Below, in pieces: positions 5,049 through 57,139 of a stretch of 64,000 bases of DNA. Every line of letters begins with the position of its first letter. The first letter of the stretch is position 1. A program made the position numbers and the translations under genes. This DNA comes from an uncultured delta proteobacterium (GTDB taxonomy: Bacteria > Desulfobacterota > Desulfobaccia > Desulfobaccales > 0-14-0-80-60-11), in assembly GCA_963797235.1 (NCBI GenBank), contig CAWCOX010000006.1, forward strand, positions 191,668 to 255,667, given 5' to 3'. The notes below the pieces were generated by a model. That model worked only from the letters and a program-made list of their open reading frames with translations. It did not search any database and had not been told where the DNA came from.

Positions 5049-5055
5049 TAAAATC

Positions 5056-23170: not shown

Positions 23171-23179
23171 TTCTTTGAG

Positions 23180-23216: not shown

Positions 23217-23273
23217 AAAATAAATATTTTTCCACCAACAGAATCACATACATGCAACTTGTGGAGATGCAGC

Positions 23274-24164: not shown

Positions 24165-24169
24165 AATCA

Positions 24170-32588: not shown

Positions 32589-33705
32589 ATGGCCGACCGC
32601 TGGATTCCCTTAAAGCAACTTCTGGAAGACGGCCTGGCCCGAGGCGTCTACACCGCGGCCGTGGCGTGCGTGGGCTGGCGAGGGGAACTGCGGTGGCAGG
32701 CCGCCGTGGGCCGGGTTTCTCGGGACCCCGCGGCCTTACCCACGACGCTTGACACCAGCTTCGATCTGGCTTCGCTGACCAAACCCCTGGCCACCGCCCT
32801 GGCCCTGATGGTTTTGACGGAGGCCGGGAAACTCACGCCCGACGCCACCCTGGGGGAATTGCTGCCCGTCGCCTGGCTGCCGCCGGACAAGCGCTCCCTG
32901 ACCCTGGCCCAGCTTTTGGCCCACCGGGCCGGGCTGCCGGCCTGGGAGCCGTTTTACCGGGAAGTCCTGCCAGCCCCCCCCGAGGCCAGGGTGAGCCTCC
33001 TGCCGCGCCTGGCCGCGGCCACACCCCTGGCCCAGCCGCCGGATACCGCCACCCTCTACAGCGACCTGGGCTTCATGCTGCTGCAGGCGGTGGTGGAGGC
33101 CGTCTCGGGCCTGGGCCTGGATCGTTTTTGCCGGGAACAAATCTACCAGCCGCTGGGATTGAGACTCTGGGTTTCACCCCAGTTAAGCCAGGCCCGGCGG
33201 AAATACCTTGAGCTATGCCTGCACCGAGCCGGGGCTCATTCCGGGGCGCCACGTCTGCGGCGAGGTGCACGATGAAAACGCCTGGGCCGCCGGGGGCGTG
33301 GCCGGGCACGCCGGGCTCTTCGGCCGGGGCTCGGAAGTTTTCGCCTTGGTGGCGGCCCTGTACCGCGCTTTTCACGGGGAAGCCGGATTGCCCTGCTCTC
33401 CGGCAACGGTGCGCCGTTTTTTGACCCCGGTGGCCCCGGGAGCCCGGGCCTTGGGGTTCGACGTCCCCAGCCCTGCGGCCGCCCAGTGCTCGGCGGGGCG
33501 CTACTTCTCGCCCCGGAGTGTCGGCCACCTGGGCTTCACCGGCACCTCTTTTTGGCTGGACCTGGAACTGGGGCAGATGATAGTCTTACTCACCAACCGG
33601 GTGCACCTGGGCCGGGACGACAAGACCAGAATCCAGGCCTTCCGGCCGCGCTTTCATGAGGCGGCCTCGAGGGCCCTGGGGTTTGACCAAGGGTTTCGGA
33701 ATTAG
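32589..33705 (+). pseudogene. serine hydrolase (class C beta-lactamase/esterase family), apparent frameshift
   Basis: SLTKP (SxxK) and YSDLGF in frame 1. LSYACTEPGLIPGRHVCGEVHDENAW...GHAGLFG...GFTGTSFW in frame 2. The slip is at the A3 run 33201-33203. Confidence 0.75.
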
Positions 33706-35759: not shown

Positions 35760-36176
35760 AAGCAGGTAATAATTCGTTTAAGACTCTGAATTGAGCCTTT
35801 TACAAGACCTTTTTCTTTAAGAACGCTTTTGTAAAATGAGAACATGTTTGTGATGGCTACACTTGATGAATGTTAATTTCAGAAAAGTTAGTTTGATAGT
35901 AATCAATACCACTTATTGCGATATTATTAAGAAACTGGTTTTAGGCTTCTTTATTAAGTTAAGGTGATAAGATTAATAAGATAATTACAATAAGATATTT
36001 TATTGGTTTAATAAATTTTTTTCACACCATGAACAATCACCCCAAAGATATTATATTAAAAACTTTGCTCAACTATTCCATTAGATAGCACAACACGCAA
36101 TTTTAACGATTACTAAAGCTGTGCTTGAAAAGGGTAGTCCACACTGGGGAGCACCACATGTGCCTCACCCGGGAGA

Positions 36177-36280
36177 TGAAAATCTCCCCTCCCCCCGTTT
36201 TGCAAAGGGAGGGGTTAAAGTCCCCCTTTGAAAAAGGGGGATTTAGGGGGATTTGAAGTTTTCGCGCTAAAGTCTGCGGC
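36177..36280. repeat. ~100-bp composite palindromic element, family R4 (copy A)
   Basis: GAAAATCTCCCCTCCCCCCGTTTTGCAAAGGGAGGGG..TCCCCCTTTGAAAAAGGGGGATTTAGGGGGATTTGAAGTTTTCGCGCTAAAGTCTGCGGC. Confidence 0.9.
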
Positions 36281-36317
36281 AACCGGCATAGTAGCGCCGG
36301 TCTCCGGCCAGTGAAAG

Positions 36318-36373
36318 ACCACAGGCTGGAAGCCTGTGCCACTATGATTTGGGGCGACCCCGCTGGGTCGCCC
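36318..36373. repeat. REP-like hairpins (R2 then R3)
   Basis: ACCACAGGCTGGAAGCCTGTGCCACT, then GGGGCGACCCCGCTGGGTCGCCC followed by a T-rich run. Confidence 0.8.
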
Positions 36374-36383
36374 TTTAATTTTT

Positions 36384-37369
36384 TTAGATTAGCAAATCCT
36401 TGAAGCGGTCCTTAGGCGGCGCCTCCAGATATAGAACCCGAACGGACCCGCCAGCTTCCAGGCTCACCCGCACCGCCGCCCCTAAAGGCGCGTCGCTGTA
36501 GGCTGCGGCCAGGCCGGCGGCCTCCTGCAAGTCTCCCTCCGAAACCGATCCGATCACCAGGACCAGGGGTCCGGGATAATCCTCCACCTGCAAGCCGTGG
36601 TCTCCCGGCGCCATCAGGCCGGCGAGGGCCTCGTTATCCCGCTGGGTGCGGCCCACCGCGGCCTTGGCGCCGCCGGGCAGGCGGAAGTGCCGGCCCCACT
36701 CGCAGCAACTCCAGGTCCCGGCGGCCGGGCCTTTCCTGATGCCGCAACAGCTCCTTGATCCGCAGGGCGTAACCCGGGTCGGTCAGCAGACAGCCGCCGG
36801 CGGGGGCGGGATAGCGGGTGATGCCGTACTCCGCGGCCAGGGCGATCTGGCGCTTGCGCCCCCGGCCGCTGAGGTTCAGCAGGCGCTCCCGGTCCACCCA
36901 GCCCTCGAGTTCCGGCCGGGTGGTCTTGAGCATCCTGGCGCTCAGGGGCCTCAGCAGGAGTTCCTCCAGGCCGGACTCCCTGGCCACCACGTTCAGGGAG
37001 CCGCGGTTCTGGCTCATGGGCCGCTGCCCCAGGACCTCGCCGGTGAAGACGAAGTCGAAGCCCTCGGCCGCCATCACCGCCCCGGCCTCCCGGATCATCA
37101 GGGCGTGGCAGTCGATGCAGGGGTTGTGCCCCTTGCCGAAGCCGTGGGGCGGCGCATAGAGCAGAGGCTCGAATTTTTCAGTGAGATCAACTTCTTGCAG
37201 GGGCAGGCCGAGATGGGCCGCGGCCTCCCGGGCCTTCACCGCCCCGTAAAAGGGCGTGACGAAACAGATGAAGGTGACCGTCAATTCCCTGGGCGCGCAG
37301 CACCGCCCCGGCCAGCATACTGTCCAGCCCCCCGGACAGGAGGCCTAAGGCTTTGATTTTTCTAGGCAT
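36384..37369 (-). pseudogene. PP-loop ATPase (ThiI/MnmA-like putative sulfurtransferase), two apparent frameshifts
   Basis: MPRKIKALGLLSGGLDSMLA (SGGxDS), NPCIDCH and GGCLLTD. The pieces are 37369-37280, 37284-36634 and 36656-36384, with slips at CC 37278-37279 and the C4 run 36684-36687. Confidence 0.7.
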
Positions 37370-37385
37370 AATTGTTGATTTTGGC

Positions 37386-37412
37386 GTAGGGGCAGCGCTT
37401 GCTGCGCCCTTA
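37386..37412. repeat. REP-like hairpin, family R3
   Basis: GTAGGGGCAGCGCTTGCTGCGCCCTTA. Confidence 0.75.
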
Positions 37413-37430
37413 ATGATGCATGAGGAAAAA

Positions 37431-37535
37431 GAAAATCCCCCCTGCCCCCCTTTGTCAAAGGGGGGGTCCAAAAAGTCCCCCTTTGAAAAAGGGGGATTTA
37501 GGGGGATTTGAAGTTTTCACGCTAACGTCTGCGGC
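37431..37535. repeat. ~100-bp composite palindromic element, family R4 (copy B, same orientation as A)
   Basis: GAAAATCCCCCCTGCCCCCCTTTGTCAAAGGGGGGG..TCCCCCTTTGAAAAAGGGGGATTTAGGGGGATTTGAAGTTTTCACGCTAACGTCTGCGGC. Confidence 0.9.
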
Positions 37536-37582
37536 TATAAGTTTATCTACCCGGCCTCTTTTTCCGAAAGAGGAATAGGCTT

Positions 37583-38350
37583 TCATCTGGGCAAATCCAG
37601 GGAGAAGCGGCTGAAGCCCAGACGGAGCAAGTCCGCCATGAAACGGCTCGCCGGACCTGGGGGGCCAGGAAGGCCGGCCACTCCTCCGGGGCCAATTCCA
37701 GGCGGGCGGCCGCGGCCTCCGGCACCCGCAGGCGCACCTGGGAAAAACCCCGGCGTCGCAGCCAGGCCTCCCCCTGCCCTACCCGGCCCAGGTCTTCCCG
37801 GGTCAAGGTGGCGCCGTAAGGAAACCGGGTGGCCAGGCAGCTCTGGGGCGGCTTGAGAGGAAGGTTTAGGGCCCGGCTCAGGGCCGCGGATGGCCGCCTT
37901 ATCGAGCCCCGCAGCCAGCAAGGGGCTGGCTACCCCCAGTTCCCGGGCCGCCTGCAGGCCGGGGCGGAAATCCCCCAGGTCGTCCAGGTTGGTGCCGTCC
38001 CACAGGACCTCGGCGCCCTGCTCCCGGGCCACCTGCCAGGCCTGGGCAATGATGGCCCGTTTGCAGGCATAACAACGCCTGCGGCTATTTTCCCGAAAAT
38101 CGGGGAGGGCCAGGGGATCAAAGGCCCGCACCAGGTGCCTGACCCCGAGACGCCGGGCCAGGCCCCAGGCTGCGGCCAGTTCTCCGGGAACGAGATGCGG
38201 GCCGACCAGGGTAATGGCGCAGAGGCCGGGCCCCAGGGCCCGGGCCGCCGCGGCCAGCAGCAGGCTGGAGTCCAGGCCGCCGGAGAACAGCAGCGCCGCC
38301 CGGCGGTGCCGGCGGAGGTTGTTTGTCAAGTTCTCCATTAAGTCAGTCAT
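37583..38350 (-). pseudogene. larE: LarE-type ATP-dependent sulfur transferase, two compensating frameshifts
   Basis: FSGGLDSSLL and CYACK in the ORF frame. The neighbouring frame (ORF 37543-37806 and its upstream extension) gives LSRALNLPLKPPQSCLATRFPYGATLTREDLGRV, which contains the LarE cysteine motif. Confidence 0.75.
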
Positions 38351-38450
38351 TCCAGCAATTCCCCAGAATGAAAAAGGGCACGGTAGGCCGTGCCCTGATT
38401 ATAACATATTTCCACGTCATTTTTGAGCCGACAGGGTTGTAAAGGAAAAA

Positions 38451-38471
38451 GGCGGGCAACGCCCGCCCTAC
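38451..38471. repeat. REP-like hairpin, family R3
   Basis: GGCGGGCAACGCCCGCCCTAC. Confidence 0.7.
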
Positions 38472-38509
38472 CCTCTTGGCTTCCCGCCGGCGGCGCGAAT
38501 TTCGGCTTG

Positions 38510-38555
38510 CCCCGTTTTCCCCCTTCCCCTTTTCCCCTTTTCGCCTCCGCCTTTT
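38510..38555. repeat. short-repeat tract (CCCCTTTT-like units)
   Basis: CCCCGTTTT CCCCCTT CCCCTTTT CCCCTTTT CGCCTCCGCCTTTT. It abuts the stop of the COG1900 gene. Confidence 0.75.
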
Positions 38556-39762
38556 AACTGTCCCGGCTGGCGGTGGGGACGCAGTGTATCTGGTCGCTGC
38601 CGGGCAGCGGTTCCACCGGTTCGCCCAGCAGGAACTGGCCGGAAGTGATCCAGTCCTTCAGGAGATGGGCGATCTCCCGGGCCCGCACCATGCTGGACAG
38701 AGGCACGGTGGGCACTTCCTGGCCCTCCAGGATGAGGTGGCCCGTCTTCAATTGGGCGTAGCTCACCTGCCCCAGAACGCGGCCGGTGGCGGCGGGATAA
38801 TCGCTGCCGTAGTCCACGATGGGGGCCAGCAGCTCTTCGTCGGACAGCCCGCAAAAATGGGCGATCTCCTCATTCAGCATGGGGATAGGAATACCCGCCC
38901 CCACGCTCAGGGAGCAGCCGTAGCCCAGGAGACTCACCCCCACCAGGTAGCGGGAAGTCATATTTTTCAAATCGCCCATGAGGAACAGGGTGCCGGCCGG
39001 CCCCAGGGGCACGCCGTGTTCGGAGCGCGGCTTGCCGGGGTTGTGCTGGGTGCCGGGAAAGACGACGTAGCCCACCCCGCCTCCCAGGAAAATCCGGGTG
39101 CCGATGCCGATGGTGCGGTAATACGGGTCGTTGAACAGGGGGCTCAAGGCGCCGGCGGTGCAGAAATTGGCGTTGCCCGCCTTGGGCCGGAGCGGCCCCA
39201 TGTAAGTGTAAATGGTGCGCTTGGACAGGTTCACCGCCACATTGTAGTTTTGGTAGCAATTGCGGGGATTGCACAGCACCGCGTTGGTCATCTGCTTCAG
39301 GGTGATCTCCCGATCCAGCCGCTTATTGGGGTAACAGTCGGTGCCGTAGGCCTCGGCCTCCAGGTGCACGGCCTTGCCCGCCACCAGGTCCTGGATGACG
39401 TGGCCGCCGCCGTATTTGAATTCGCCCGGGTAGACCTTATTCAGAGGATCATCGACGGTGGGCTCGGTGGCCCCGATATAGACGTCCACCGCGGCCAGGC
39501 CGGCATAGGCCCGCACGTTGTTGATCCAGACCTTCGAGGCCTTGATGGGCGGCTTGCTGTGGCCGAAATTGAGGAAGGCCCCGGAAGAGCACATGGGCGA
39601 AAAGGTGCCGGTGGTGACCACGTCCACGGTGCGGGCCGCGGCCGCCTCGCCCTTGGTGCGCACGATATCGATCATTTCCTCGGCGGTGACCACGACCGCT
39701 TGACCTTTCCTGATTTTGTCATTAATTTCCTGATAGGTCTTATTCACCTGATAATTCGCCAT
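38554..39762 (-). CDS. COG1900/DUF39 homocysteine-biosynthesis-type sulfurtransferase
   Basis: 402 aa with VVTTGTFSPMCSSGAFLNFGH and NPRNCYQNYNVAVN, characteristic of the MA1821-like family. No NIL-ferredoxin partner is seen. Confidence 0.75.
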   Translation of the reverse strand: MANYQVNKTYQEINDKIRKGQAVVVTAEEMIDIVRTKGEAAAARTVDVVTTGTFSPMCSSGAFLNFGHSKPPIKASKVWINNVRAYAGLAAVDVYIGATEPTVDDPLNKVYPGEFKYGGGHVIQDLVAGKAVHLEAEAYGTDCYPNKRLDREITLKQMTNAVLCNPRNCYQNYNVAVNLSKRTIYTYMGPLRPKAGNANFCTAGALSPLFNDPYYRTIGIGTRIFLGGGVGYVVFPGTQHNPGKPRSEHGVPLGPAGTLFLMGDLKNMTSRYLVGVSLLGYGCSLSVGAGIPIPMLNEEIAHFCGLSDEELLAPIVDYGSDYPAATGRVLGQVSYAQLKTGHLILEGQEVPTVPLSSMVRAREIAHLLKDWITSGQFLLGEPVEPLPGSDQIHCVPTASRDS

Positions 39763-39794
39763 AACCCACCCTTCTCTTGAGGTAACCCTTCGCC

Positions 39795-39896
39795 ATGGCT
39801 CACAACTTCCTACCCATCTGGTCCATTTTTATCACCAGCCTGGTTTCTCTGTTCGTGATTCTCGACCCGCTGGGCAATATCTCATCCAGGGCCTGA
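39795..39896 (+). pseudogene. N-terminal remnant of a MarC/UPF0056 family membrane protein
   Basis: Own translation: MAHNFLPIWSIFITSLVSLFVILDPLGNISSRA*. The FxILDPxGN motif is typical of the MarC N-terminus. It is truncated after 33 codons next to the radical SAM gene's 3' end. Confidence 0.4.
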
Positions 39897-39918
39897 AGAG
39901 CGCCTTTCCCCGGCTGGC

Positions 39919-41256
39919 TCAATAAAAGTCCACCGGGTCGATCTTCCGCATCGCCGCCCAATGGAAAAAGAGGTTGCTGGGCAGCCCCTGAAAGATGTAA
40001 CCGGTGGGTGGCGACAATAACCGGTGCCAGATGGAACGGAAGGAGTAAAATTTCTGAAAGCACCGCCAGACGCCGGCTTCGCACTGGTCAGGGGTCATGT
40101 GCTTGGGGAAGAAGTTGCACACCATCCCCAGGTACTTTTCGGCGTCGGGGTTGTGCATCCGGCCTTCCTTATTGAGCTGGTCCCACATGGGGGTGCCCCG
40201 GCGGGGAGTGGCCACGTTGAAGAAGGCCATGGGCGCCTTGACCTTATCCAGGAAATCCAGGGTCTCGTCGAACAGCTCCTGGTGGTCGCCGTCCAGCCCG
40301 AACATGAAGTTCAGGGAATAAAAGATCCCCTTTTTCCGCAACTGGCCCAGGAGCCAGCCGTACTCCGCCACCGGGTTCTGCACCTTGTCGATGGAGGAGA
40401 TGGACTCGGAGCAGACGTTTTCGATGCCGATGTTGACGTGGCTGCAGCCGGAACGCTTGGCCAGGTCCAGCAGGTCCTCGTCCCGGGAGGTGTTGATGGT
40501 CCACAGGCAGCTCCAGTGGATCTTCAGGGGCATCAGGGCCTGGAACAGTTCCTTGGCGTAGTCCCGGTGGCCGGTGAGGTTGTCGTCGATGAAATAGATG
40601 TTTTTGAGGCCGGTGATGCGCACGTTGGCCTGAATTTCGGCGATCACCTCAGCAATGGGCCGCCGGCGATAGGTGTGGCCGTAGACGATGGGCACCTCGC
40701 AGAAGGCGCAGTGGTACGGACAGCCCCGGCTGGTCTGGGTGGGGAGGATCTTGACCCGGTAGTTCCGGTAATCCACCAACTCCAGGCGGGGCCGGGGCAG
40801 ACCGGCCAGGTCGTGAAAATCCGCGGCCTGGTAACGACGCTGCAGGCGTTTGACCCGGGCGTCCTCCAGGACCTGCTCCCAGACCGACTCCGCCTCGCCC
40901 ACCACCACGGCGTCGCAATGCTCCATGGCCTCTTCGGGGTGCAGGGTGACATGGAAGCCGCCCATGACCACCGGCACGCCCCGGCGGCGAAACTCCGCGG
41001 AAATTTCATAGGCCCGCTCGGCCGTGGCGCAGGTGGAGGTGATCCCCACCAGATCATACTGGCGGTGATAGGGGAGGTCCATTAGGCGGTCATCCGCCAG
41101 GTCCACCTGGATGCCGCGGGGCGTCAGCCCGGCCAGATAAGGCAGGGTGATGCCCAAAAGCCAGCGGGTGCGGCTGCGCAGCAGCTTCCGGTTCGGATAT
41201 TTAGTTGTGGGCTGAACCAGCAAAATTCTCATGGAAACGGGCATCTCCCGGCGCAC
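39919..41256 (-). CDS. B12-binding domain-containing radical SAM protein
   Basis: The N-terminal Rossmann-like B12-binding region (ILLVQP...VVMGGFH) is followed by SRGCPYHCAFCEV (CxxxCxxC). The start may instead be ATG 41232. Confidence 0.85.
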   Translation of the reverse strand: MRREMPVSMRILLVQPTTKYPNRKLLRSRTRWLLGITLPYLAGLTPRGIQVDLADDRLMDLPYHRQYDLVGITSTCATAERAYEISAEFRRRGVPVVMGGFHVTLHPEEAMEHCDAVVVGEAESVWEQVLEDARVKRLQRRYQAADFHDLAGLPRPRLELVDYRNYRVKILPTQTSRGCPYHCAFCEVPIVYGHTYRRRPIAEVIAEIQANVRITGLKNIYFIDDNLTGHRDYAKELFQALMPLKIHWSCLWTINTSRDEDLLDLAKRSGCSHVNIGIENVCSESISSIDKVQNPVAEYGWLLGQLRKKGIFYSLNFMFGLDGDHQELFDETLDFLDKVKAPMAFFNVATPRRGTPMWDQLNKEGRMHNPDAEKYLGMVCNFFPKHMTPDQCEAGVWRCFQKFYSFRSIWHRLLSPPTGYIFQGLPSNLFFHWAAMRKIDPVDFY

Positions 41257-41392
41257 ACAAGGGCAGTTGAATTTGGCTCACTCCAGACGCACAGAAAGCC
41301 TGCCGGCGCCAATCCTTGGCTAAAGCGAAAGCCGGCCAGGGATAGCCATTCTCAAAGAAAACCCCCCGGCTTCTGCAGGGAGGTTAGTCTCT

Positions 41393-41420
41393 ATTGTAAT
41401 ATATAGTATAGGCCTTTCAA
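41393..41420 (-). promoter_or_regulatory. candidate sigma-70 promoter for the radical SAM gene
   Basis: The minus strand reads TTGAAA-16 nt-TACAAT. Confidence 0.4.
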
Positions 41421-41466
41421 TGGGAAAAGTCATCAGCGGCCCGGTGAGGTTCTCAGGTAACCGCTT

Positions 41467-41527
41467 GTGTAAAACCGCCGCCCTCGGCGGTTCCTCTCAG
41501 ACGCCGGTGAGGGCGCCGGCGCTACAT
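41467..41527. repeat. double-hairpin element, family R1 (inverted orientation)
   Basis: The reverse complement reads ATGTAGCGCCGGCGCCCTCACCGGCGTCTGAGAGGAACCGCCGAGGGCGGCGGTTTTACAC. Confidence 0.85.
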
Positions 41528-41538
41528 TATTAACTAAT

Positions 41539-42291
41539 TCAATCCTTTCGATTGATCAACGCCGCCAGGAAGCCGGCGCCGAAGCCGTTGTCGATGTTGA
41601 CCACCGCCACTCCGGTGGCGCAGGAATTGAGCATGGCCAGCAGGGCCGCCAGGCCGCCGAAGGAAGCGCCGTAGCCCACGGAGGTGGGCACGGCGATCAC
41701 CGGCCGGTCCACCAGACCGCCCACCACGCTGGGCAGGGCGCCTTCCATGCCCGCCACCACCACGAAGACGGTGGCCTGGGCCAGCAGCTCCCGGTGGGCC
41801 AGCAGCCGGTGCAGGCCGGCCACCCCCACGTCATAGACCGGCTCGGCCCGGTGCCCCATGATGCGGGCCGTGAGCAGCGCCTCTTCGGCCACCGGGATGT
41901 CGGAGGTGCCGGCGGAGAGCACCACGATCACGCCCCGGCCCCGGTCGGGGACCTGGCCCCGGCTGAGGGTCAGCACCCGGGAATCGGGGTGGTAACGGGC
42001 CTGGTCGAATTCGGCCAGCAACACCGCGGCCTTTTCTCCGTCCAGGCGGGTCACCAGGACGTGGTCGGACCGGCGCGTCAGGGCCTCTATAATCCCCCGA
42101 ATCTGCTCCAGGCTCTTGCCCTCGGCGAAGACCACCTCCGGGAAGCCCTGGCGCAGCTGCCGATGGTGGTCCACCCGGGCGAAACCCAGGTCTTCGAAAG
42201 GCAAGGTCCGGAGCCGCTCCACCGCCTGATCGACGGACAATTGCCCCTCTTTAACTTCGGAGAGCAACTGCTCTAAAACTTTGATATCCAT
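41539..42291 (-). CDS. larB: LarB-type (PurE-like) nickel-pincer cofactor biosynthesis protein
   Basis: N-terminal extension with ARVDHHR. PurE-like core [13 protein letters not shown] and [16 protein letters not shown]. Confidence 0.8.
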
Positions 42292-42341
42292 GCATAATCC
42301 TTTATGAATCAGGGGTCAGGGAAAGCTTAATATAACTGCCT

Positions 42342-43490
42342 TCACTTTTCCGCGGCCACCAACTTGCCTTCCCGCGTCACCCGATAAGTTTTTCCGCCCC
42401 AGGTGACCCGATGGCCCAGGAAGCTCAGGGACCACAGAACGAAGGCCAGCAGGTCTTTCAGGGGCAGCAGCCACAAATCGCGCCTGGCCAGGTGGCCCCG
42501 GAGACAGGTCCACTCCGAGAAGCCGGCCAGGATCCAGCGCAGGGACAGGGTCGCCGCGGCCAGTCCCAGGGTCCAGGAGGCTGCCCCGGTGGCCCAGACC
42601 AGGATCAGGCTGTAGACCAGGGCGTGGGTGATGCCGTAGGCCAGGAAGCCCTTGGGGCGGCAGACCCGGTAAGTGCGGGCCCAACGCAGCTGGTGCACCA
42701 GATAATCCTTCAGGCTCAGGTCCGGATCTTGCGTCTCCACCACATAGGGGAGAATCTTCACCCCCAAAGCGGCCGCGGCCACCCGCCAGCCCAACTGGTA
42801 GTCATCCGCCAGGAAGTCGGCCAGGGGGGCCAGGCCGCCGATGGTCTGCAAGGCCCGGCGGTTCAGGGCCATGGCGGCCCCCAGGGCGAAGCGGATGCCC
42901 TCCACGTAGTGGGCCGTGGCCACCGAGGGGATGAAATCCGCGGCAATGGTCAGGGCCTCCAGTTTGGCCCCCAGGGTAGAGGCCGGGCCGCAACGATACG
43001 GACAGCTCACCAGGCCCATCTCCGGTTCCTGCAAGGCCGCGGCCACCCGGGAGAGGAAATCCGGCCCCACCTTGACGTCGGCGTCGGCAATGACCAGCAG
43101 GTCGTAGGCGGCCCGCGCCTCCATCTGCCGTAGCTTGCTGATCTTGGGGTTCAGCCCCAGGCTCTCGGGGCAAAAGACCAGGTCGGTCGCCAGGTCAGGA
43201 TGCGCCTGCTGGAGTTCCCGGAGCAGGCCCACCACCGGGTCCTCGGGGTCCCGGACGCCGAAAATTACCTGATAGGGCTGATAAGCCTGAGACAAAAAAC
43301 TCTCCAGGCACTCCCGGGTGTTGGACTCCAGGCCCTTCACGGGCTTGAAGACGGTGATGCCGGGGCCGGTCGCGGCCGCAGGCGGGGCGCCGGCCGGGGC
43401 GAAGAAACGCCGCAGGGATACCAGGGCCAGGAACTGGTAGCCGCAGGCGGCGATCAGAAGCAGGAGCACTAGGAAAGCCGGAATTCCCAT
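42342..43490 (-). CDS. glycosyltransferase, family 21/2 (ceramide glucosyltransferase/HpnI-like)
   Basis: N-terminal TM segment. ITVFKPVKG...VIFGV...ADADVKV (DxD). C-terminal TM bundle with QLRWARTYR. Confidence 0.7.
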   Translation of the reverse strand: MGIPAFLVLLLLIAACGYQFLALVSLRRFFAPAGAPPAAATGPGITVFKPVKGLESNTRECLESFLSQAYQPYQVIFGVRDPEDPVVGLLRELQQAHPDLATDLVFCPESLGLNPKISKLRQMEARAAYDLLVIADADVKVGPDFLSRVAAALQEPEMGLVSCPYRCGPASTLGAKLEALTIAADFIPSVATAHYVEGIRFALGAAMALNRRALQTIGGLAPLADFLADDYQLGWRVAAAALGVKILPYVVETQDPDLSLKDYLVHQLRWARTYRVCRPKGFLAYGITHALVYSLILVWATGAASWTLGLAAATLSLRWILAGFSEWTCLRGHLARRDLWLLPLKDLLAFVLWSLSFLGHRVTWGGKTYRVTREGKLVAAEK

Positions 43491-43665
43491 GATAGCCCAA
43501 GGGTGATCTCAATAAGGCCCAGACTTGCAATTCGCTCATCATATCACGAAGCTACAAAAAGAACAGATGCTACCGGGAAAAACGGCGGCACCGGGGCTGT
43601 CTGCCTTGCCTCGGGCCAGGAGCATCTTATCTTTAAGGACATCCTCGGCGTATAAGGAGAAAATC

Positions 43666-44010
43666 ATGACGGAAGCAGTGGTCTATTGGCGTGACAGTTG
43701 GAATGCGGCCCTGGAAGAAGCCAAAAAGGCCAACCGGCCTCTGGTGCTGGAACTCTATATGGAAGGCTGCCCCCACTGCCAGCATATGCACCGGGAGACC
43801 CATGCCGACCCGGCGGTGGCCGCGGCCTTGAACACCCGCTTCATTCCGGTGCGCCTGGAAGGGCGACAACACATGGATGTGGTGAAACAGTTCAACGTTA
43901 CCGGGGCGCCCACCACTATCATTGTATCGCCTGAGGGGAAGGAACTGCACCGCATTGCCGGGTTCCTCTCACCGGCGGAGTACCTCAAAGAGATAGAAAA
44001 ATACGGCTGA
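43666..44010 (+). CDS. thioredoxin-fold protein
   Basis: CPHC active-site motif. ATG 43666 follows AAGGAGA. The track ORF upstream part is discounted. Confidence 0.7.
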   Translation: MTEAVVYWRDSWNAALEEAKKANRPLVLELYMEGCPHCQHMHRETHADPAVAAALNTRFIPVRLEGRQHMDVVKQFNVTGAPTTIIVSPEGKELHRIAGFLSPAEYLKEIEKYG

Positions 44011-44090
44011 AGCGCCTCAAGGCGCGGAGATAAGTCGACCCGGCGTCAGCTTGGAGTCGAGGCGTCAACCAGGGCCCCAGGGAGTCAACC

Positions 44091-44116
44091 GGGCGGCCAA
44101 GCCCCGCCTTTTTTTT
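44091..44116 (+). terminator. rho-independent terminator
   Basis: Short stem GGCGG/CCGCC followed by T8. Confidence 0.5.
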
Positions 44117-44156
44117 CACGGAGTGCCGGAGAAAGGCTCGGAAGCGCCATTCTCAT

Positions 44157-44185
44157 TTGCCAAGCCGCGTTTTTTTTCGTATCAT
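44157..44185 (+). promoter_or_regulatory. candidate sigma-70 promoter for the carboxypeptidase gene
   Basis: TTGCCA-17 nt-TATCAT. Confidence 0.45.
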
Positions 44186-44248
44186 AATACAGCCGGTGGG
44201 CGCAGATATCCTGGTTCACCGGGCTAATCACGGCAGGCAAGAGGGCTC

Positions 44249-45232
44249 ATGAAACAAGGCAACAAATTGGCACTGGTGTTTTTCGGGTTGCTGGCGGTTT
44301 TGTGGTTGGCGGTGGCGCCGGCCGGCGCTCAGGATGAAGAGGGTTTTCAGGTTTCGGCCAAATCGTTCGTCCTGATGGATGCCAAAACCGGCCAGATATT
44401 ACTCTCCCTTAACCCCCAGCTGTTTATCCCTCCTGCCAGTACCATGAAGGTCATGACGGCCTTGTCGGTGGTGGAGCACCTGAAGATGGACGACACCGTG
44501 ACGGTGAGCGCCTACGCCGCCTCCGCCCCGGCCTCCAAGATCGGCATTAAGGCCGGAGAGACTTACACGGTTCAAGACCTGCTCTATGCCCTGCTGCTCT
44601 CTTCGGCCAACGACTCGGCCCGGGCCCTGGCCGAGAAGGTGAGCGGCAGCGAAGAGGCCTTTGCCCAACAGTTGACCCGGGAAGTCCGGCAATGGGGGGC
44701 CTACCGCACCACCCTGGCCACGGCCAACGGCCTGCCGGCGGACAACCAGTTTTCCACCGCCCAGGACCTGGCTCTGATGTTCAAGAAGGCCATGGAAAAT
44801 CCGGAGTTGGCCAAGATTATGGGGACCAAGTATTACACCATCAAGGGGGACAAGGAACTGCGCAACCATAACCGCTTCCTGTTCACTACCCCCCTGGCGG
44901 TGGCGGGCAAGACCGGCTATACCATAGCCTCCAAAACCACTTACGTCGGCGAGTTTCAAAAGGACGACAAGGCCGTAATCGTCGCCATGATGGGGAGTAC
45001 GAAGAAATGGGCCGACTTGCGGCCCCTCGTCGAGAAGGGCTTTGAACTGGAAGGCGCCCCCATCGCCAAGCTGCCGCCGGCGGAAGAAAAGCTCTATGTC
45101 GGCAGGGGCCACGGCACCGGGGTCGCGGCCCGGAGGTCCAAACGGAGCAAGGCGATCGGCTCCGCCGGCTGCCCTCCCAGGAAAAAGGCTTTGAGCCGGA
45201 AAAAGTCCAAGCAGAAGGAAGAGGAATCTTGA
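44249..45232 (+). CDS. D-alanyl-D-alanine carboxypeptidase (S11 penicillin-binding protein)
   Basis: Signal peptide. ASTMK (SxxK), SSAND (SxN) and GKTGYT (KTG). Confidence 0.85.
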   Translation: MKQGNKLALVFFGLLAVLWLAVAPAGAQDEEGFQVSAKSFVLMDAKTGQILLSLNPQLFIPPASTMKVMTALSVVEHLKMDDTVTVSAYAASAPASKIGIKAGETYTVQDLLYALLLSSANDSARALAEKVSGSEEAFAQQLTREVRQWGAYRTTLATANGLPADNQFSTAQDLALMFKKAMENPELAKIMGTKYYTIKGDKELRNHNRFLFTTPLAVAGKTGYTIASKTTYVGEFQKDDKAVIVAMMGSTKKWADLRPLVEKGFELEGAPIAKLPPAEEKLYVGRGHGTGVAARRSKRSKAIGSAGCPPRKKALSRKKSKQKEEES

Positions 45233-45242
45233 GGCGAGGGTT

Positions 45243-45518
45243 ATGAGGCCCGCCAAGGGTTTGTTCAATAAAGTCAAGAACCTGCCTACCCGCCGGCGGT
45301 TTGTGATTTCCACCATCAAGAAGGAAGAGGGCCGCTTCGAAACCGCGGTGTTTGAGGCCGGCTTCTTTTACACGCCCCGGCACCTGTCCAAGCCCGATCT
45401 GGCGGTGGAGAACCACTCGCAAGAAGAGGCCTGGGACCTGCACTACCGCCTGACCGTCCGTTTGGCCCAGGAATACCCAACCAGGGTTTTCGAAGATTAC
45501 CGTCAGCCGCCCGCCTGA
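45243..45518 (+). CDS. hypothetical protein
   Basis: 91-aa ORF with host-like codon bias, 10 nt after the upstream stop. Confidence 0.5.
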   Translation: MRPAKGLFNKVKNLPTRRRFVISTIKKEEGRFETAVFEAGFFYTPRHLSKPDLAVENHSQEEAWDLHYRLTVRLAQEYPTRVFEDYRQPPA

Positions 45519-45752
45519 ACCACCACCGGATTAAAGCCTCCCGGTCAAAGAGCCGAATCTAATAACAGGCCGGTGGCCGCCGCGCCGCGGGGACCGGCCC
45601 CGCCAGACGCCGCGGGCCTCTGGACCGGATCAGTGGCCACCTGTAACCATCGCCAAAAGCTCCTGCCGGTTTATCCCCACTGCCCCAATGGGTGAGGAGG
45701 ATGAGGGGGAATAAGCAAAAACTTTTGGCAATTCCTGTAACCGGGTCGGATC

Positions 45753-46259
45753 ATGGCTAGGCCGAAATTTGCTCGGGTGGGCGGAGGCTGGGGCGAAACG
45801 GGTAACGTCGTGGTGGAATTGGCCCTGGTCCTCCCCCTGCTGCTGCTGATGTTGGCCGGCATTGTCGACCTGGGCACCCTTTACTGGGAAAAACAGATCC
45901 TGACCGACGCCGCCGACGAGGGGGCCAGGGTGGCCTCGTGGGCCGCCGCCGACGGGTCTGCGGCCCAAAACGCCGTGCAAGTCATGCAGATCGTCCAGGG
46001 CCAATTGGACCAATACCACCTGCGGGACGCCGGCGGCAGCCGGATCGTCTTGACCTCGGGCAGCAACTTCAACTACCATTGGGATGCTACCGTTACCCCG
46101 GTGGTGTTGTGGGTGGAGATTAAGAACATTCCGGTGGGGATGCTGCTGCTGCCTAATGTGCTGCCGCTTTTTGGGAGTGGCGGCAATTTCAGCCCGCCGG
46201 CCTTGCAGGCCAAAACCACGGTGGCGGCGGAGTGGACCACCCCGCCGCCTCTGAGGTGA
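45753..46259 (+). CDS. TadE/TadG-like pilus assembly protein
   Basis: N-terminal GNVVVELALVLPLLLLMLAGIVDLG, typical of TadE-like pseudopilins. No other tad genes are in the window. Confidence 0.6.
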   Translation: MARPKFARVGGGWGETGNVVVELALVLPLLLLMLAGIVDLGTLYWEKQILTDAADEGARVASWAAADGSAAQNAVQVMQIVQGQLDQYHLRDAGGSRIVLTSGSNFNYHWDATVTPVVLWVEIKNIPVGMLLLPNVLPLFGSGGNFSPPALQAKTTVAAEWTTPPPLR

Positions 46260-46305
46260 GGGCTTTGTTTCGGGGGCGGCCCCAAAGTGGCCTTGAAGGT
46301 CTCGC

Positions 46306-46986
46306 CTAAAAGTCCAAATCCACGCTTTTCACCCCCTCCATAGCAAAGACCTCCTGCAAGACCTCCCGGCTGGGATGCACGGTGCGCATCCGTAAGAGAA
46401 AGCTGGCCCGCACCTCTTTTCTCTCCAGGTCTTTTTTCAAACCGAAGTTGACGATCTCGAATTGATTCTTAGCGATGATCTCCTGAATGCGGTTGAGTTG
46501 GCCGGCTTCGTCTCGGGCCACTACGGTCATCTCCTTATACCAATCCTTCTTCAGCCGCCGCTCCAGGGCCTTGAGCCCCACCAGAGACACCAGGGTGAGG
46601 CTGGTCACCGCGCCCCCGAAGAGATAAAACCCGGCGCCGATGGCCAGACCGACGGCGCAGGCCACCCAAATGGCGGCCGCGGTGGTCAGGCCGCGGATGG
46701 TGTCTTTATAACGCAGGATGACGCCGGCCCCCAAAAAGCCGATGCCGGTGATGGCCTGGGCCGCGATGCGCCCCGGGTCGGCCCGCAGGATGTCGGTCAG
46801 CCCCTTGGCCTCATATTTGAAAAAGAGCAATTCCGAGACCACCATGATCAGGGCCGAGCCCATGCACAGGAGCAGATAGGTCCGGATGCCGGCCGGCCGG
46901 CCGTGCACCTCCCGTTCGAGCCCCACCACCGCACCCAGGATCGCGGCCAGGAACAACCTGAAGAGAATCTCGTAATTGCTTACCAT
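46306..46986 (-). CDS. mgtC: MgtC/SapB family membrane protein
   Basis: GAVVGLEREVHGRPAGIRTY, 4-5 TM segments and a C-terminal ACT-like domain. Confidence 0.85.
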   Translation of the reverse strand: MVSNYEILFRLFLAAILGAVVGLEREVHGRPAGIRTYLLLCMGSALIMVVSELLFFKYEAKGLTDILRADPGRIAAQAITGIGFLGAGVILRYKDTIRGLTTAAAIWVACAVGLAIGAGFYLFGGAVTSLTLVSLVGLKALERRLKKDWYKEMTVVARDEAGQLNRIQEIIAKNQFEIVNFGLKKDLERKEVRASFLLRMRTVHPSREVLQEVFAMEGVKSVDLDF

Positions 46987-47034
46987 GGTCGGCTCCTTGC
47001 TTGGAGGAATGCGGGATTTTGTCCAGTTTTCTTT

Positions 47035-47838
47035 TTAAACTCCCCAGACCGCGATCTTGGCCCGATTGGCGGCGGTGAGCATCTGGTCGCGGTCGAAGGT
47101 GAGGGTTTTGTGGGCTTCGAGGGCCAGGACCGCGGCCTGGGCCTCGATCATGGATTGGATGGTGTCCAGGCCGACGGCGGGGACGTCGAAGCGCAGGTCC
47201 TGGTTGGGTTTGCTCGTTTTCACCACCACCGTGCCGGGTCCGGCCAGGGCGCCTGCCCGGCGGATGCAGGCGTCGGTGCCTTCGACGGCCTCCAGGGCCA
47301 CCACCACGTGATGGCGGACTACCACGGTCTGGCCGATGTCGAGGGCGCCGATCTCCTTGGCGATTTGGAAGCCGAAGTCGATGTCCTGCAGCTCTGCCTG
47401 GGTGGGGGAGCGTTTGCCCAGTTTGCCGGCGGGAGCCAGGAGGTCGTCCAGAAAGAGGGTGGAGGGGGCGATGCTGATGCCTTCGGACTCGAATTCGGCG
47501 GCCACCGCCTGGAGCAGGCGGTCGTCCTGACCGGCCCCGGCCCGGCGGACGACGCTCAAGGCGCGGAGGTCCGGGCGGAACTCCCGGAAGAGGCGGCCCC
47601 GGGTGATGCCCCCGGCCATCACGGCCCGCTGCACCCCGGCATCCTTAAAGATGCGGATCATCTTGCCCAACTGGCCGACGTAGATCCAGTGGATTTCGTC
47701 CACCAGGTCGGCTAAAGAAGGATCGGTCTCATAATGGTGCGCCACGGCGATGACCCGGGCCCCGTGGTCCCGGGCGGCCTGGGCGAAGAGCCGCGGAAAC
47801 TGGCCTTTACCCGCGATTAAGCCGATGTTCTCGGACAT
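47035..47838 (-). CDS. lpxI: UDP-2,3-diacylglucosamine diphosphatase LpxI
   Basis: IGLIAGKGQFP and DIGQTVVV...LEAVEGTDACIRR. Position downstream of lpxA. Confidence 0.8.
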   Translation of the reverse strand: MSENIGLIAGKGQFPRLFAQAARDHGARVIAVAHHYETDPSLADLVDEIHWIYVGQLGKMIRIFKDAGVQRAVMAGGITRGRLFREFRPDLRALSVVRRAGAGQDDRLLQAVAAEFESEGISIAPSTLFLDDLLAPAGKLGKRSPTQAELQDIDFGFQIAKEIGALDIGQTVVVRHHVVVALEAVEGTDACIRRAGALAGPGTVVVKTSKPNQDLRFDVPAVGLDTIQSMIEAQAAVLALEAHKTLTFDRDQMLTAANRAKIAVWGV

Positions 47839-48616
47839 CTGCCGGCAGCAGCCCCCGTTCCGAGGTCTCCAGGAAGTGCAGGAATTCCTGGACCTCCGGA
47901 TTTTCGGGGAATTCCTGGCGCACCTGGTCCATGGCCTCTTTCAGCTTGAGGTCGGAGAGGAACAGCAGTTCGTAGGCCCGTTTCAGGCCGTGCAGGGAGG
48001 AGTCGGTGAAGCCGGCCCGTTTCAGGCCCACCAGGTTGAGGCCGACGATCTTGGCCCGGTTGCCCACCGCCATGGCGTAGGGCGGCACGTCCCGGTGCAC
48101 CGCGGAGCAGCCGCCCACGAAGGCGTAGCGGCCGATGCGGCAAAACTGGTGCACCGCCGACAGGCCCCCCAGGTTGGCGTGGTCACCCACGGTGATGTGG
48201 CCCCCCAGGGTGGCGTTGTTGGACATGATGACGCCGTCGCCCACCCGGCAATCGTGGGCCACGTGGGTGTAGGCCAGGAAGAGGTTGCCCCGGCCCACGC
48301 TGGTGACGCCGCCGCCGCCGGCCGTGCCCCGGTGCATGGTGGCAAATTCCCGGATGGTGTTGTCGTCGCCGATGACCAGCCGGGTTTCTTCGCCCTTAAA
48401 CTTCAAGTCTTGGGGAACTTCCCCCAGAACGGCGAACTGAAAAATCTGGCAGCGGCTGCCGATGGTGGTGAAGTCCCGGATCACCACGTGGGGGCCGATG
48501 TGGGTGTCGGGTCCGATGGCGACCCGGCCCTCAATGATGCTGAACGGACCGACGGTGACCCCGTCGGCCAATTGCGCCGCCGGATCCACCAGGGCGGTGG
48601 GATGGATCGTGGCCAT
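47807..48616 (-). CDS. lpxA: acyl-ACP--UDP-N-acetylglucosamine O-acyltransferase
   Basis: IHPTALVDP start, hexapeptide repeats and MHRGT. Confidence 0.95.
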   Translation of the reverse strand: MATIHPTALVDPAAQLADGVTVGPFSIIEGRVAIGPDTHIGPHVVIRDFTTIGSRCQIFQFAVLGEVPQDLKFKGEETRLVIGDDNTIREFATMHRGTAGGGGVTSVGRGNLFLAYTHVAHDCRVGDGVIMSNNATLGGHITVGDHANLGGLSAVHQFCRIGRYAFVGGCSAVHRDVPPYAMAVGNRAKIVGLNLVGLKRAGFTDSSLHGLKRAYELLFLSDLKLKEAMDQVRQEFPENPEVQEFLHFLETSERGLLPADVREHRLNRG

Positions 48617-48618
48617 CC

Positions 48619-49077
48619 TCAGGCCTCTTCCTTGCTCACCGCGGCGATCATCTCCCCTTCCATCACCAGGGTATCGTTGACGTAAACCTTACCGCGCATC
48701 TTCCAATACTTTTTACCGGAGCGCAGAGTCTCCACCTCCAGCCGCATTTGATCACCCGGCACCACCGGCTGCCGGAAACGCACCTTGTCCAGACCCATGA
48801 GGTAAACGGAGGGACTGCCCATATTTTCCGGGGTGGACAGCAGGGCCAGGATGCCGCCCACCTGGGCCAGGGACTCCACAATGAGCACCCCGGGCATGAT
48901 GGGGCGTCCGGGAAAGTGCCCCTGGAAGAAGGGCTCGTTGATACTGACGTTCTTCAGGCCGACGATGCTTTTTCCCGGTTCCAGGGCGATGATCCGGTCC
49001 ACCAGGAGGAAGGGAAAGCGGTGCGGCAGGATGCGTTGAATCTCTTCCACGTTCAGGGGAAGCGGCGGCAGGCTCAT
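48619..49077 (-). CDS. fabZ: 3-hydroxyacyl-ACP dehydratase
   Basis: [13 protein letters not shown] and [16 protein letters not shown]. The start was chosen at MSLPPLPLN (ATG 49077). Confidence 0.95.
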
Positions 49078-50117
49078 GTTTCCGGCTCCTTGTCCAGCCC
49101 GGCGGCCAGTTCGGCCAGTTGTTTTTCCACGAGTTTCAATCTCCGATAGAGGTCCGGAAGTTTGGGGATATGGCCCATGCTCTTGAGCCAATCTTTATGG
49201 GAAAAGGCGGGGCTGCCGGAGACGTCCTGGCCGGCGGGCACGGAATGGTTGACCCCGGATTGGGCCCCCACCCGGACGCCGTCGCCCAGTTCGATGTGGC
49301 CCACCAGGCCCACCTGGCCGGCCAGGATCACCTTCCGGCCCAGTTTGGTGGAGCCGGACACCCCCACCTGAGCCACCAACAGGGAGTGCTCGCCCACCGT
49401 GACATTGTGGGCCAGGTGCACCAGGTTGTCAATCTTGACCCCCCGGCCGATCCGGGTTTCTCCCAGGGCGCCCCGGTCAATGGCGCAGTTGGCCCCGATC
49501 TCCACTTCGTCTTCGATGACCACCGTACCCAGCTGGGGGATCTTCTCATTGCCGGCCGGGGTGGGGACAAAGCCGAAGCCGTCGGAGCCGATGACCGTGC
49601 CGCTGTGGATGAGGCAACGCCGGCCCACCTGGCAGCGCTCCAGGATGGTGACGTTGGGATAGATCAGGGTGCCGGCCCCGAGGTGCACCTCATCACCCAG
49701 ATAGCAGCCGGGCATGACGGTAACTCCGTCATCCAGGCGCACCCGGTCGCCGATGAAGACCAGGGGAGCGATGGAGACCTCCCGGCCCAGCTTCAGGTCC
49801 CGGCCCAGGGAGGCTTGGTCGCTGATGCCGGCCCAGCGCCGTGGGGCCGGGGCAAAGAGAGCCGCCACCCGGGCATAGGCCAGATAGGGGTGGGGCACGA
49901 TGATCAGGGGCCGGGGCAGGTCAGCCAGGTCCGGGGCCACGATGAAGGCCCCGGCCCGGCTGCTGCTCACCAATCGGGCATAGCGCCTTTGGGCGATAAA
50001 GGTAATTTCCCGGGGACCGGCGCCTTCAACCGCAGCGATACCCTCGAGCTCCAGGTCAGGGGGGCCTTTTACTTCCCCTTGCAGCAGGGCCGCCAGTTCT
50101 CCCAGGGTGCGTTTCAT
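49074..50117 (-). CDS. lpxD: UDP-3-O-acylglucosamine N-acyltransferase
   Basis: N-terminal LpxD domain, hexapeptide repeats and a C-terminal helix. Confidence 0.95.
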
Positions 50118-50125
50118 GCCATCAT

Positions 50126-50635
50126 TTAATGACCGAATGCGGCTTGCACTTTGTCATTGACGTCCAAGGCTTTATTGCCCAGATATAAAACCATCCTCTT
50201 ATCCAGAATCAGATCCAGCTTTTCATTCTTGGCAACCTGTTCCATGGCGCTATCCATCTTCTTGGACAGCGGGGCCAGCTGACTTTGCTTGAACAGGTTT
50301 AGCTGTTTTTCGGCGTCGGCCGCCTGCTTTTCAAACTCCTGGGCCTTCTTTTCCAACTCCTGGCCCTTGGTCTTCCTGGCGTCTTCCTTCATCATGCTGG
50401 CCTGCTTTTGGAATTCCTCCATTTGCCGGCCGATATCCTGCCGTTTGGTACTCAGGGGCTTGCCCAGTTCCTCGGCCTTCTTCTTGATGGAATCCTGGAC
50501 CGATTTGCCGGCGGGGGAGTTCATCAGGATGCTATCGGGATCGGCTACCCCGATTTTAAGCTCAGCGGCCACGGCCGCCAACGGGCCGAACATCAGGGTC
50601 ATGGCTAATAAGGCGCTAACAACTAATTTAAGCAT
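50126..50635 (-). CDS. skp: OmpH/Skp family periplasmic chaperone
   Basis: Signal peptide and a Lys/Glu-rich coiled region. Located between bamA and lpxD. Confidence 0.85.
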
Positions 50636-53527: not shown

Positions 53528-53528
53528 C

Positions 53529-55643: not shown

Positions 55644-57139
<1,496 letters not shown>

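Follow-up and report, generated by a model that had tools for sequence, protein, structure and literature searches.

A LarB, LarE and COG1900a gene neighbourhood with a B12-binding radical SAM gene in the Desulfobaccales: a probable mosaic of two synteny blocks

Described systems and the five genes of the locus

LarB, LarE and LarC construct the nickel-pincer nucleotide cofactor, and COG1900 proteins put sulfur into aspartate semialdehyde, with a NIL-ferredoxin as the usual partner. In a 64,000-nucleotide (nt) stretch of DNA from an uncultured member of the Desulfobaccales (hereafter the window; G+C content about 62%), members of both systems lie together among five minus-strand genes at 36384-42291. 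In transcription order, these genes encode LarB, a B12-binding radical S-adenosylmethionine (SAM) protein, a COG1900a sulfurtransferase for L-aspartate semialdehyde (L-ASST), LarE and a ThiI+DUF814 protein. A first-pass annotation had named the same genes in the same order and on the same strand. Both the order and the identities are borne out by Pfam and NCBIfam matches (NF033503 for LarB, PF04055/PF02310 for the radical SAM protein, PF01837 for L-ASST, TIGR00268 for LarE, ThiI and NFACT-R_2 for the last gene). That annotation had offered two readings of the cluster. For the radical SAM gene and LarB, coincidental clustering appears to hold; no support was found for the other reading, a variant thio-cofactor pathway of five genes. 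We consider it likely that the five genes, all from known families, are transcribed separately and make up a mosaic in which two synteny blocks are joined, and that they do not form a single pathway.

Thermotoga maritima has a LarE that is catalytic and not sacrificial, in which a CxxC...C motif binds a [4Fe-4S] cluster, and LarE of this type requires an external sulfane-sulfur donor in vitro (PMC9283937). The DUF39/COG1900a pathway, with NIL-ferredoxin and COG2122, has been described in Methanosarcina (MA1821/MA1822) and Desulfovibrio. Two cysteines of MA1821 have been discussed, Cys54, which is essential, and Cys131 (PMC12068725), and a conserved cysteine of this protein is persulfidated in vivo, as cited in PMC5764234. 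The DUF39, NIL/ferredoxin and COG2122 genes of Desulfovibrio vulgaris carry distant locus tags (DvMF_1464, DvMF_0262 and DvMF_0044; PMC5764234). The ThiI+DUF814 family has been predicted to be an alternative tRNA 4-thiouridine synthase (Burroughs and Aravind 2014; PMC4075521). The class B cobalamin-dependent radical SAM enzymes include AprD4, TsrM, HpnJ, BchE and PhpK. The five genes of the locus are as follows.

41539-42291, minus strand: LarB, the nicotinic acid adenine dinucleotide carboxylase/hydrolase of nickel-pincer cofactor synthesis; intact, 250 amino acids (aa), NF033503
39919-41232, minus strand: class B (B12-binding) radical SAM protein, an apparent orphan, with the cluster motif CPYHCAFC; 437 aa, PF04055, PF02310, weak DUF4070
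38554-39762, minus strand: COG1900a L-ASST (homocysteine synthesis); intact, 402 aa, PF01837
37583-38350, minus strand: LarE of the CxxC...C ([4Fe-4S]) type; TIGR00268; frame broken at about 37886 (+1) and about 37645 (+2)
36384-37369, minus strand: ThiI+DUF814 (NFACT-R_2) PP-loop ATPase, predicted alternative tRNA 4-thiouridine synthase; frame broken at about 37281 (+1) and about 36702 (+1)

LarB and LarE resemble the nickel-pincer lar system, as known from the Lactiplantibacillus plantarum operon and from the LarE-LarB-LarC clusters of numerous bacteria, in that both pass the NCBIfam equivalog cut-offs. LarB scored 299 bits with NF033503 (cut-off 175) and 51 bits with the PurE-like Pfam family AIRC (PF00731). 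The frame-repaired LarE protein scored 226.5 bits with TIGR00268 (cut-off 150) and gave a full-length alignment with LarE of L. plantarum (5UDQ, E=1e-25). It contains the PP-loop SGGLDS (SGGxDS), CYAC and SCLATR, and so shares the PP-loop and the CxxC...C motif of the catalytic Thermotoga maritima type. The phosphate binders of LarE are Ser180, Arg212 and Arg214 in L. plantarum numbering. Both arginines are kept in the window protein (VRLRV versus VRVRF in 5UDQ), with Thr in place of Ser180.

The window differs from the described lar system in three respects. LarB and LarE are neither adjacent nor in one operon, with three unrelated genes between them; LarC and LarA are absent within 64 kb; and other Desulfobaccales carry LarB and LarE in separate genome regions. 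No Pfam match to the LarA, LarC or NIL domains was found among the 30 window open reading frames (ORFs) scanned or in the Pfam annotation of syntenic relatives. A NIL-ferredoxin query gave no match in the window in tblastn. The absence of larC, larA and a NIL-ferredoxin, remarked on in the first-pass annotation, is therefore confirmed within the window by Pfam, by tblastn and by the LarC hidden Markov model (HMM) described below. Judging from family membership, LarB and the [4Fe-4S]-type LarE would yield a dithiocarboxylated pyridinium as the precursor of the nickel-pincer cofactor, and nickel would then be inserted by a LarC encoded elsewhere. A literature search on Desulfobacca and lactate racemase found nothing.

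L-ASST matches PF01837 (HcyBio) over its full length (518 bits, profile positions 1-349 of 349) and is 98% identical to P0121. Its score with the methanogenesis-marker-16 model, 126 bits, is far under the cut-off of 364. Two cysteines, Cys58 and Cys143, do not vary among 15 orthologues; by position they lie near the published Cys54 and Cys131 of MA1821 and may be their equivalents. The likeness to the described COG1900a pathway lies in the full-length domain and, going by position, possibly in the two cysteines. The window protein differs in having no fused CBS domain. In five Desulfobaccales loci (L017, L020, L021, L024 and L031), a NIL-ferredoxin gene stands directly upstream of an L-ASST gene whose product is 83-84% identical to that of the window, and a remnant of such a gene was found at L032. 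This NIL-ferredoxin is a 140-aa ORF in which a NIL domain (PF09383, 57 bits against a cut-off of 24) is fused to a 2x[4Fe-4S] ferredoxin (Fer4). The canonical partner of COG1900, which the first-pass annotation had regarded as decisive against an unusual pathway, is thus found beside orthologues in five relatives. Since the partners are dispersed in Desulfovibrio vulgaris, a missing NIL-ferredoxin neighbour is normal in this phylum. The window L-ASST appears to be a housekeeping homocysteine enzyme whose NIL-ferredoxin would lie elsewhere in the genome. By analogy with its family, it would make homocysteine from aspartate semialdehyde and sulfide, together with a NIL-ferredoxin (and COG2122) encoded elsewhere.

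The radical SAM ORF extends over 39919-41256. The likely true start is the ATG at 41232, which gives 437 aa, the length of nearly all homologues. The protein scored 43 bits with PF02310 (cut-off 32) and 61 bits with PF04055 (cut-off 29.5), and its tail gave a weak match to DUF4070. With the N-terminal B12-binding domain, the CxxxCxxC core and this weak tail, it is like the class B enzymes named above; it differs from them in fitting none of the curated subfamilies. Against the curated NCBIfam subfamilies it reached only about 60-100 bits, where the cut-offs are 251-775, and no equivalog was attained; the HpnJ, PhpK, BchE and ladderane-type models (cut-offs 360-775) gave 60-100 bits. Since these scores are far under every curated cut-off, the protein belongs to no curated subfamily. 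The nearest solved structures are AprD4 (6fd2, E=8e-15) and TsrM (6wte).

The ThiI+DUF814 protein matches PF02568 (31 bits) and PF18297 (58 bits). After frame repair, its motifs CIDC, GGCLL and GRGRKRQ agree with the family description, that is, the same two domains, a CxxC motif, an internal cysteine and GRxRxxQ. The conserved neighbour reported for the family is TusA; the usual neighbour in Desulfobaccales is LarE. We found no solved structure for a ThiI+DUF814 protein. As a member of this family, it would thiolate tRNA. LarE and ThiI+DUF814 appear to be independent PP-loop sulfurtransferases.

Gene order in related genomes

About 170 related loci were compared in total. In the comparison anchored on COG1900, an orthologue alignment gave 80 genome loci with flanks of up to 10 kb, and counts were restricted to the loci with sufficient flank. 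Loci with HcyBio identity of at least 72% are called Desulfobaccales-like (39 loci), and those with 65-71% identity are called other Thermodesulfobacteriota (41 loci). The closest relative (L008/L009) is a contig of a metagenome-assembled genome (MAG) with 91-95% (about 92%) DNA identity to the window in blastn.

The five-gene set is not kept beyond close relatives. LarB is near HcyBio in 1/30 Desulfobaccales-like loci (L009 only) and in 1/28 of the other Thermodesulfobacteriota. The radical SAM gene is upstream of HcyBio in 32 of the 35 Desulfobaccales-like loci and in 0/33 of the others, and ThiI+DUF814 is nearby in 20/29 and 0/29, respectively. LarE follows HcyBio directly in 33/35 and 4/34. 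Beyond the Desulfobaccales, the sole recurring adjacency is that of L-ASST followed by LarE. In the Desulfobacterales, L-ASST (67-71% identical) is located between an M23 peptidase gene and LigT, RecA and AlaS, as in most of the other loci. Conservation of gene order, which the first-pass annotation had named as the check on its proposal, is thus partial: the radical SAM, L-ASST, LarE and ThiI+DUF814 genes are partly kept together within one taxonomic order, but LarB is not part of this arrangement. The order of these four genes appears to be synteny inherited within the Desulfobaccales.

The synteny points to two blocks. Block A would run Skp, LpxD, FabZ, LpxA, LpxI, MgtC, PBP5, a thioredoxin-like protein, GT21 and LarB; it spans 42342-50635 of the window. 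Block B would run radical SAM, (MarC), (NIL-ferredoxin), L-ASST, LarE, (ThiI+DUF814) and Mpl. Only in the window and in L008/L009 are LarB and the radical SAM gene immediate neighbours. LarB homologues with 78-94% identity are common in Desulfobaccales, and LarB is the final gene of block A in three further genomes (L089, L090 and L091), where it is followed by unrelated genes, for example those for acetolactate decarboxylase and a flavodoxin-like protein. One of these LarB genes (L090) lies on the same contig as the L-ASST gene of its genome (L025), with about 36 kb between them. The window LarB is 98% identical to that of L008, with a ratio of nonsynonymous to synonymous substitution rates (dN/dS) of 0.06. 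The two blocks would be joined between LarB and the radical SAM gene, at a junction limited to the genus of the window. Because the blocks meet there, the LarB/radical SAM adjacency is best read as a rearrangement junction. LarB appears to have been brought here by rearrangement and would not belong to the set.

Transcription signals were also examined, together with the interval between the radical SAM and L-ASST genes. Three features of the intergenic gaps are relevant.

41393-41500, minus strand: terminator hairpin of LarB, then a sigma-70-like promoter of the radical SAM gene (sequence reading and promoter scan)
39763-39918, no strand: intergenic scar of a lost MarC gene, junction at about 39882 (blastn against L008)
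38375-38469, minus strand: two terminator-like hairpins between L-ASST and LarE (38469-38449 and 38396-38375)

From LarB to ThiI+DUF814, successive genes are separated by 282, 156, 203 and about 213 nt. The LarB terminator hairpin is located at about 41500-41470, and the promoter-like site at 41420-41393 (TTGAAA-16-TACAAT) matches the consensus in 10/12 positions, a match to consensus only. The promoters and terminators reported in the first-pass annotation are accordingly present. In relatives, the radical SAM and L-ASST genes are separated by an opposite-strand MarC gene, confirmed as PF01914 (29/38 Desulfobaccales-like loci; 0/39 other Thermodesulfobacteriota). In the window this gene has been lost by a clean deletion, with about 520 nt missing relative to L008 and short remnants of both gene ends retained. 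Taken together, the gaps with hairpins, the promoter-like site and the opposite-strand MarC in relatives disfavour a single operon. These signals argue that the five genes are separately transcribed. Neither a riboswitch nor a leader RNA was identified in the long gaps: Rfam at the gathering threshold matched nothing but RNase P RNA and a tRNA, both in other parts of the window, and a permissive scan of 36000-43700 gave chance-level matches only.

The radical SAM gene also occurs away from this neighbourhood. Orthologues with 55-59% identity (family loci L003, L007, L172 and L173) are found in Geobacter/Geotalea, Nitrospirota, Binatia and Elusimicrobia, and no sulfur-insertion gene was found beside it in the Geotalea, Nitrospirota, Binatia or Elusimicrobia loci examined. 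Geotalea has it among chemotaxis and RNase H-like genes and Nitrospirota among Mla/MMPL genes; in Binatia it is near sigma factor and ABC export genes, and in Elusimicrobia near genes for heme and PPDK. With different neighbours each time, a function could not be assigned from the context in foreign phyla. On one Nitrospirota contig, the gene lies inside an Mla/MMPL lipid-transport cluster. The radical SAM protein appears to be an orphan that shares order-level synteny with L-ASST, and it would act on an unrelated substrate.

The neighbour of LarB in block A suggested another candidate for the function of the radical SAM protein.

42342-43490, minus strand: GT21 glycosyltransferase (HpnI-like), the last-but-one gene of block A; TIGR03472, PF13506

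GT21 scored 342 bits with TIGR03472, the HpnI equivalog (cut-off 310), and it matches PF13506. It was considered whether the radical SAM protein could be HpnJ, the partner of this HpnI-like enzyme. This was rejected on the score with TIGR03471 (96.6 bits against a cut-off of 577.6), and is also contradicted by the location of the GT21 and radical SAM genes in different blocks in other Desulfobaccales (L089-L091). GT21 is directly upstream of LarB in L008, L089, L090 and L091, an order conserved across Desulfobaccales. This enzyme of the hopanoid glucosamine HpnI type is set among lipopolysaccharide and peptidoglycan genes, with no other hopanoid genes in view.

Adjacency of the L-ASST and LarE genes

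Several observations, however, weigh against the reading of the region as a mosaic of independent genes. The order L-ASST then LarE is not only conserved in the 33 Desulfobaccales-like loci but is also found in two further lineages whose LarE is 32-41% identical (L070; L071, L077, L080, L092 and L093). At L070, the genes preceding L-ASST and LarE are, in order, LarB, an unrelated ORF and a CBS protein, so that a LarB gene is nearby. At L071, L077 and L080, a CBS protein and then acetyl-CoA synthetase come before L-ASST and LarE, and the latter two genes abut. On two metagenomic contigs unrelated to Desulfobaccales (L099 and L129), LarE has ThiI+DUF814 as its immediate neighbour. These recurring adjacencies, L-ASST with LarE and ThiI+DUF814 with LarE, hint at functional or regulatory coupling among the sulfur-insertion genes. 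In addition, an HMM built from 17 LarC proteins gave no LarC match in the window or in loci L001-L091, about 1.4 Mb in all. The 17 proteins were PF01969 members adjoining LarE and LarB in metagenomic loci, one of which was verified (PF01969, 473 bits).

These observations could be explained by a partial module, in which L-ASST, LarE and perhaps ThiI+DUF814 are kept together by a shared supply of sulfur or Fe-S clusters or by a common regulator, with LarB and the radical SAM gene as bystanders. For example, the [4Fe-4S] LarE could draw its non-core sulfur from a persulfide-forming COG1900a or from the sulfide pool of the latter. The requirement of this LarE type for a sulfane-sulfur donor in vitro and the persulfidated cysteine of MA1821, as cited in PMC5764234, would fit such a role. 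The L-ASST/LarE pairs fall in three separate LarE clades, and the two genes abut or overlap in L006, L071, L077 and L080. In another clade, it is a CysK-like pyridoxal phosphate (PLP) enzyme (PF00291) that is encoded directly upstream of LarE on the same strand, in 21 loci of one metagenomic clade (L097-L169; e.g. L119). The flanks of these loci contain GT9, IspD and CarD nearby, and neither LarB nor LarC. The ThiI+DUF814/LarE neighbours are at L099:3996-5869, with a 4-nt overlap, and L129:1198-3082 (GC 0.69 and 0.58). This neighbourhood is absent from those reported for the ThiI+DUF814 family.

The distribution of the pair over a wider sample speaks against the module. In a metagenome scan anchored on LarE, which covered 80 diverse loci, 19 had LarB next to LarE and about 18 had LarC there; HcyBio adjoined LarE in only 2, both of the L071 lineage, and ThiI+DUF814 in 2. 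From the side of HcyBio, too, a LarE neighbour outside the Desulfobaccales is confined to the 4 of 34 loci mentioned above. In a neighbour-joining tree, the Desulfobaccales LarEs form one clade, with the L071 group and L070 outside it; most of the 33 adjacencies are therefore one inherited arrangement. In the window itself, a gap of 203 nt containing two terminator-like hairpins separates the two genes. Canonical partners of LarE, which the first-pass annotation expected elsewhere if the clustering were fortuitous, are indeed common, in that LarE-LarB-LarC clusters occur widely among LarE homologues; in the Desulfobaccales loci, however, LarC was not seen. A search for an operator motif shared upstream of the sulfur genes returned only a repetitive extragenic palindromic (REP)-like hairpin that is also present at 62.5 kb.

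On balance, we regard the partial module as unlikely. The regular position of LarE after L-ASST in Desulfobaccales, which sets the locus apart from the described COG1900a pathway, may reflect a shared sulfur supply or only old synteny; a real functional link between the two is somewhere between unlikely and rather improbable. Still more doubtful is the general proposal that, in sulfide-rich anaerobes, COG1900a (or its sulfur route) also supplies the non-core sulfur to [4Fe-4S]-type LarE, and perhaps to the neighbouring ThiI+DUF814. If true, it would explain why LarE is repeatedly encoded right after an enzyme of sulfide assimilation, which is L-ASST in three of the LarE clades and resembles CysK in a fourth. 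A literature search found no paper linking COG1900 and LarE.

Frame breaks, other features and meaning of the locus

As sequenced, LarE is not an intact ORF. In a three-frame translation, its N-terminus and C-terminus share one frame, and the part with SCLATRFPYG between them is in a different one. The first-pass annotation had correctly noted the SCLATRFPYG motif and was silent on the two frameshifts each in LarE and ThiI+DUF814; it is because of the former that the motif is out of frame with the LarE N-terminus. Compared with L008, all four breaks are insertions, at the positions and of the sizes given in the feature lines. ThiI+DUF814 passes through three frames. Both genes are intact in L008 (254 and 327 aa, respectively).

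The frameshifts are most likely assembly indels. Other genes of the window are broken as well, including essential ones: BamA is split into two ORFs, LysS is truncated with both ends missing, and a beta-lactamase-family gene lies in two frames. In related long-read MAGs the breaks fall in a different set of genes: L005 has them in HcyBio and the PP-loop gene, and L008 in IspD. Between the window and L008, dN/dS is 0.26 for LarE and 0.21 for ThiI+DUF814, in the same range as for Mpl (0.25) and Ddl (0.26), so that relaxed selection, the expected sign of a pseudogene, was not found. It is from these breaks, those of the relatives and the unrelaxed dN/dS that we read the frameshifts as errors of assembly. 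The broken genes elsewhere in the window are located at 50872-53563 (BamA), 55715-56641 (LysS), and 32589-33702 (beta-lactamase family); YggS (3139-3835) and NIF3 (20965-21378) are probably broken too.

There is another possible interpretation, in which LarE and ThiI+DUF814 are real, recent pseudogenes in a region of local decay that includes the loss of MarC, so that the nickel-pincer pathway and this tRNA thiolation would have been lost. It is compatible with the other readings. A stretch of 1.9 kb contains four of the five frame breaks across 19 genes compared with relatives. None of the four is in a homopolymer run, and intact frames were found for LarB, the radical SAM gene, L-ASST, GT21, Mpl and Ddl. 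This clustering is tighter than random error predicts, which gives recent pseudogenisation some probability. MarC, however, is also missing from several relatives that retain LarE, and the breaks in essential genes, the different breaks in related MAGs and the dN/dS values all favour assembly error. Pseudogenisation is thus a minority interpretation to which we assign a low probability.

A lower-GC island (0.54-0.58) at 23046-25276, beside the RNase P RNA gene (22806-23169), contains an ORF with the DNA-methyltransferase motifs SPPY and DPFAGGGTT and a neighbouring ORF of 368 aa. The island is likely to be an inserted restriction-modification system, and its methylation could add to systematic nanopore base-calling errors.

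Two repeats bracket the ThiI+DUF814 gene.

37425-37535, no strand: REP-like double hairpin between LarE and ThiI+DUF814, with a 64-nt direct repeat
36186-36280, no strand: the REP-like double hairpin again, as a second copy on the downstream side of ThiI+DUF814 (repeat search)

The repeated 64 nt at 36217-36280 and 37472-37535 are 97% identical, and a third copy is present at about 62536-62581. The REP-like or miniature inverted-repeat transposable element (MITE)-like element consists of two CCCCCTTTGAAAAAGGGGG-type hairpins with the flanks AAATCCCCC / GGGGGATTT. Elsewhere in the window, a NifS/IscS-type cysteine desulfurase is encoded at 10052-11287. Two coding-looking ORFs, 5825-6931 (369 aa) and 420-1253 (278 aa), gave no Pfam match. 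The 369-aa ORF comes after a gene pair resembling the 2-hydroxyacyl-CoA dehydratase D-component and its activator (3948-5915).

Finally, it is very improbable that the five genes form a new thio-cofactor or thio-metabolite pathway, in which the B12 radical SAM enzyme would modify (e.g. methylate) the LarB/LarE-derived dithiocarboxylated pyridinium or a COG1900-made thiol: the five-gene adjacency, seen only in the window and L008/L009, and the lack of larC and larA in the window would fit it, but it appears to be largely refuted by the synteny data, with LarB adjoining in 1/30 related loci, an opposite-strand MarC splitting the radical SAM gene from L-ASST in most relatives, the radical SAM gene away from sulfur genes in other phyla, hairpin or promoter signals of its own for each of the five genes, and NIL-ferredoxin beside L-ASST orthologues in five relatives.

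With the five-gene pathway failing, the locus adds little to the known biochemistry of its families, four of the genes being ordinary members of described ones. On the mosaic reading, the apparent clustering stems from a rearrangement junction together with inherited gene order. The frame breaks illustrate that indels in long-read MAGs can mimic pseudogenes in the very genes under study. The radical SAM protein represents an uncharacterised family that occurs across several phyla, and its gene context gives no guess at its function. The recurrent position of a [4Fe-4S]-type LarE after a sulfide-assimilating enzyme bears on the in vivo sulfur donor of the catalytic LarE.

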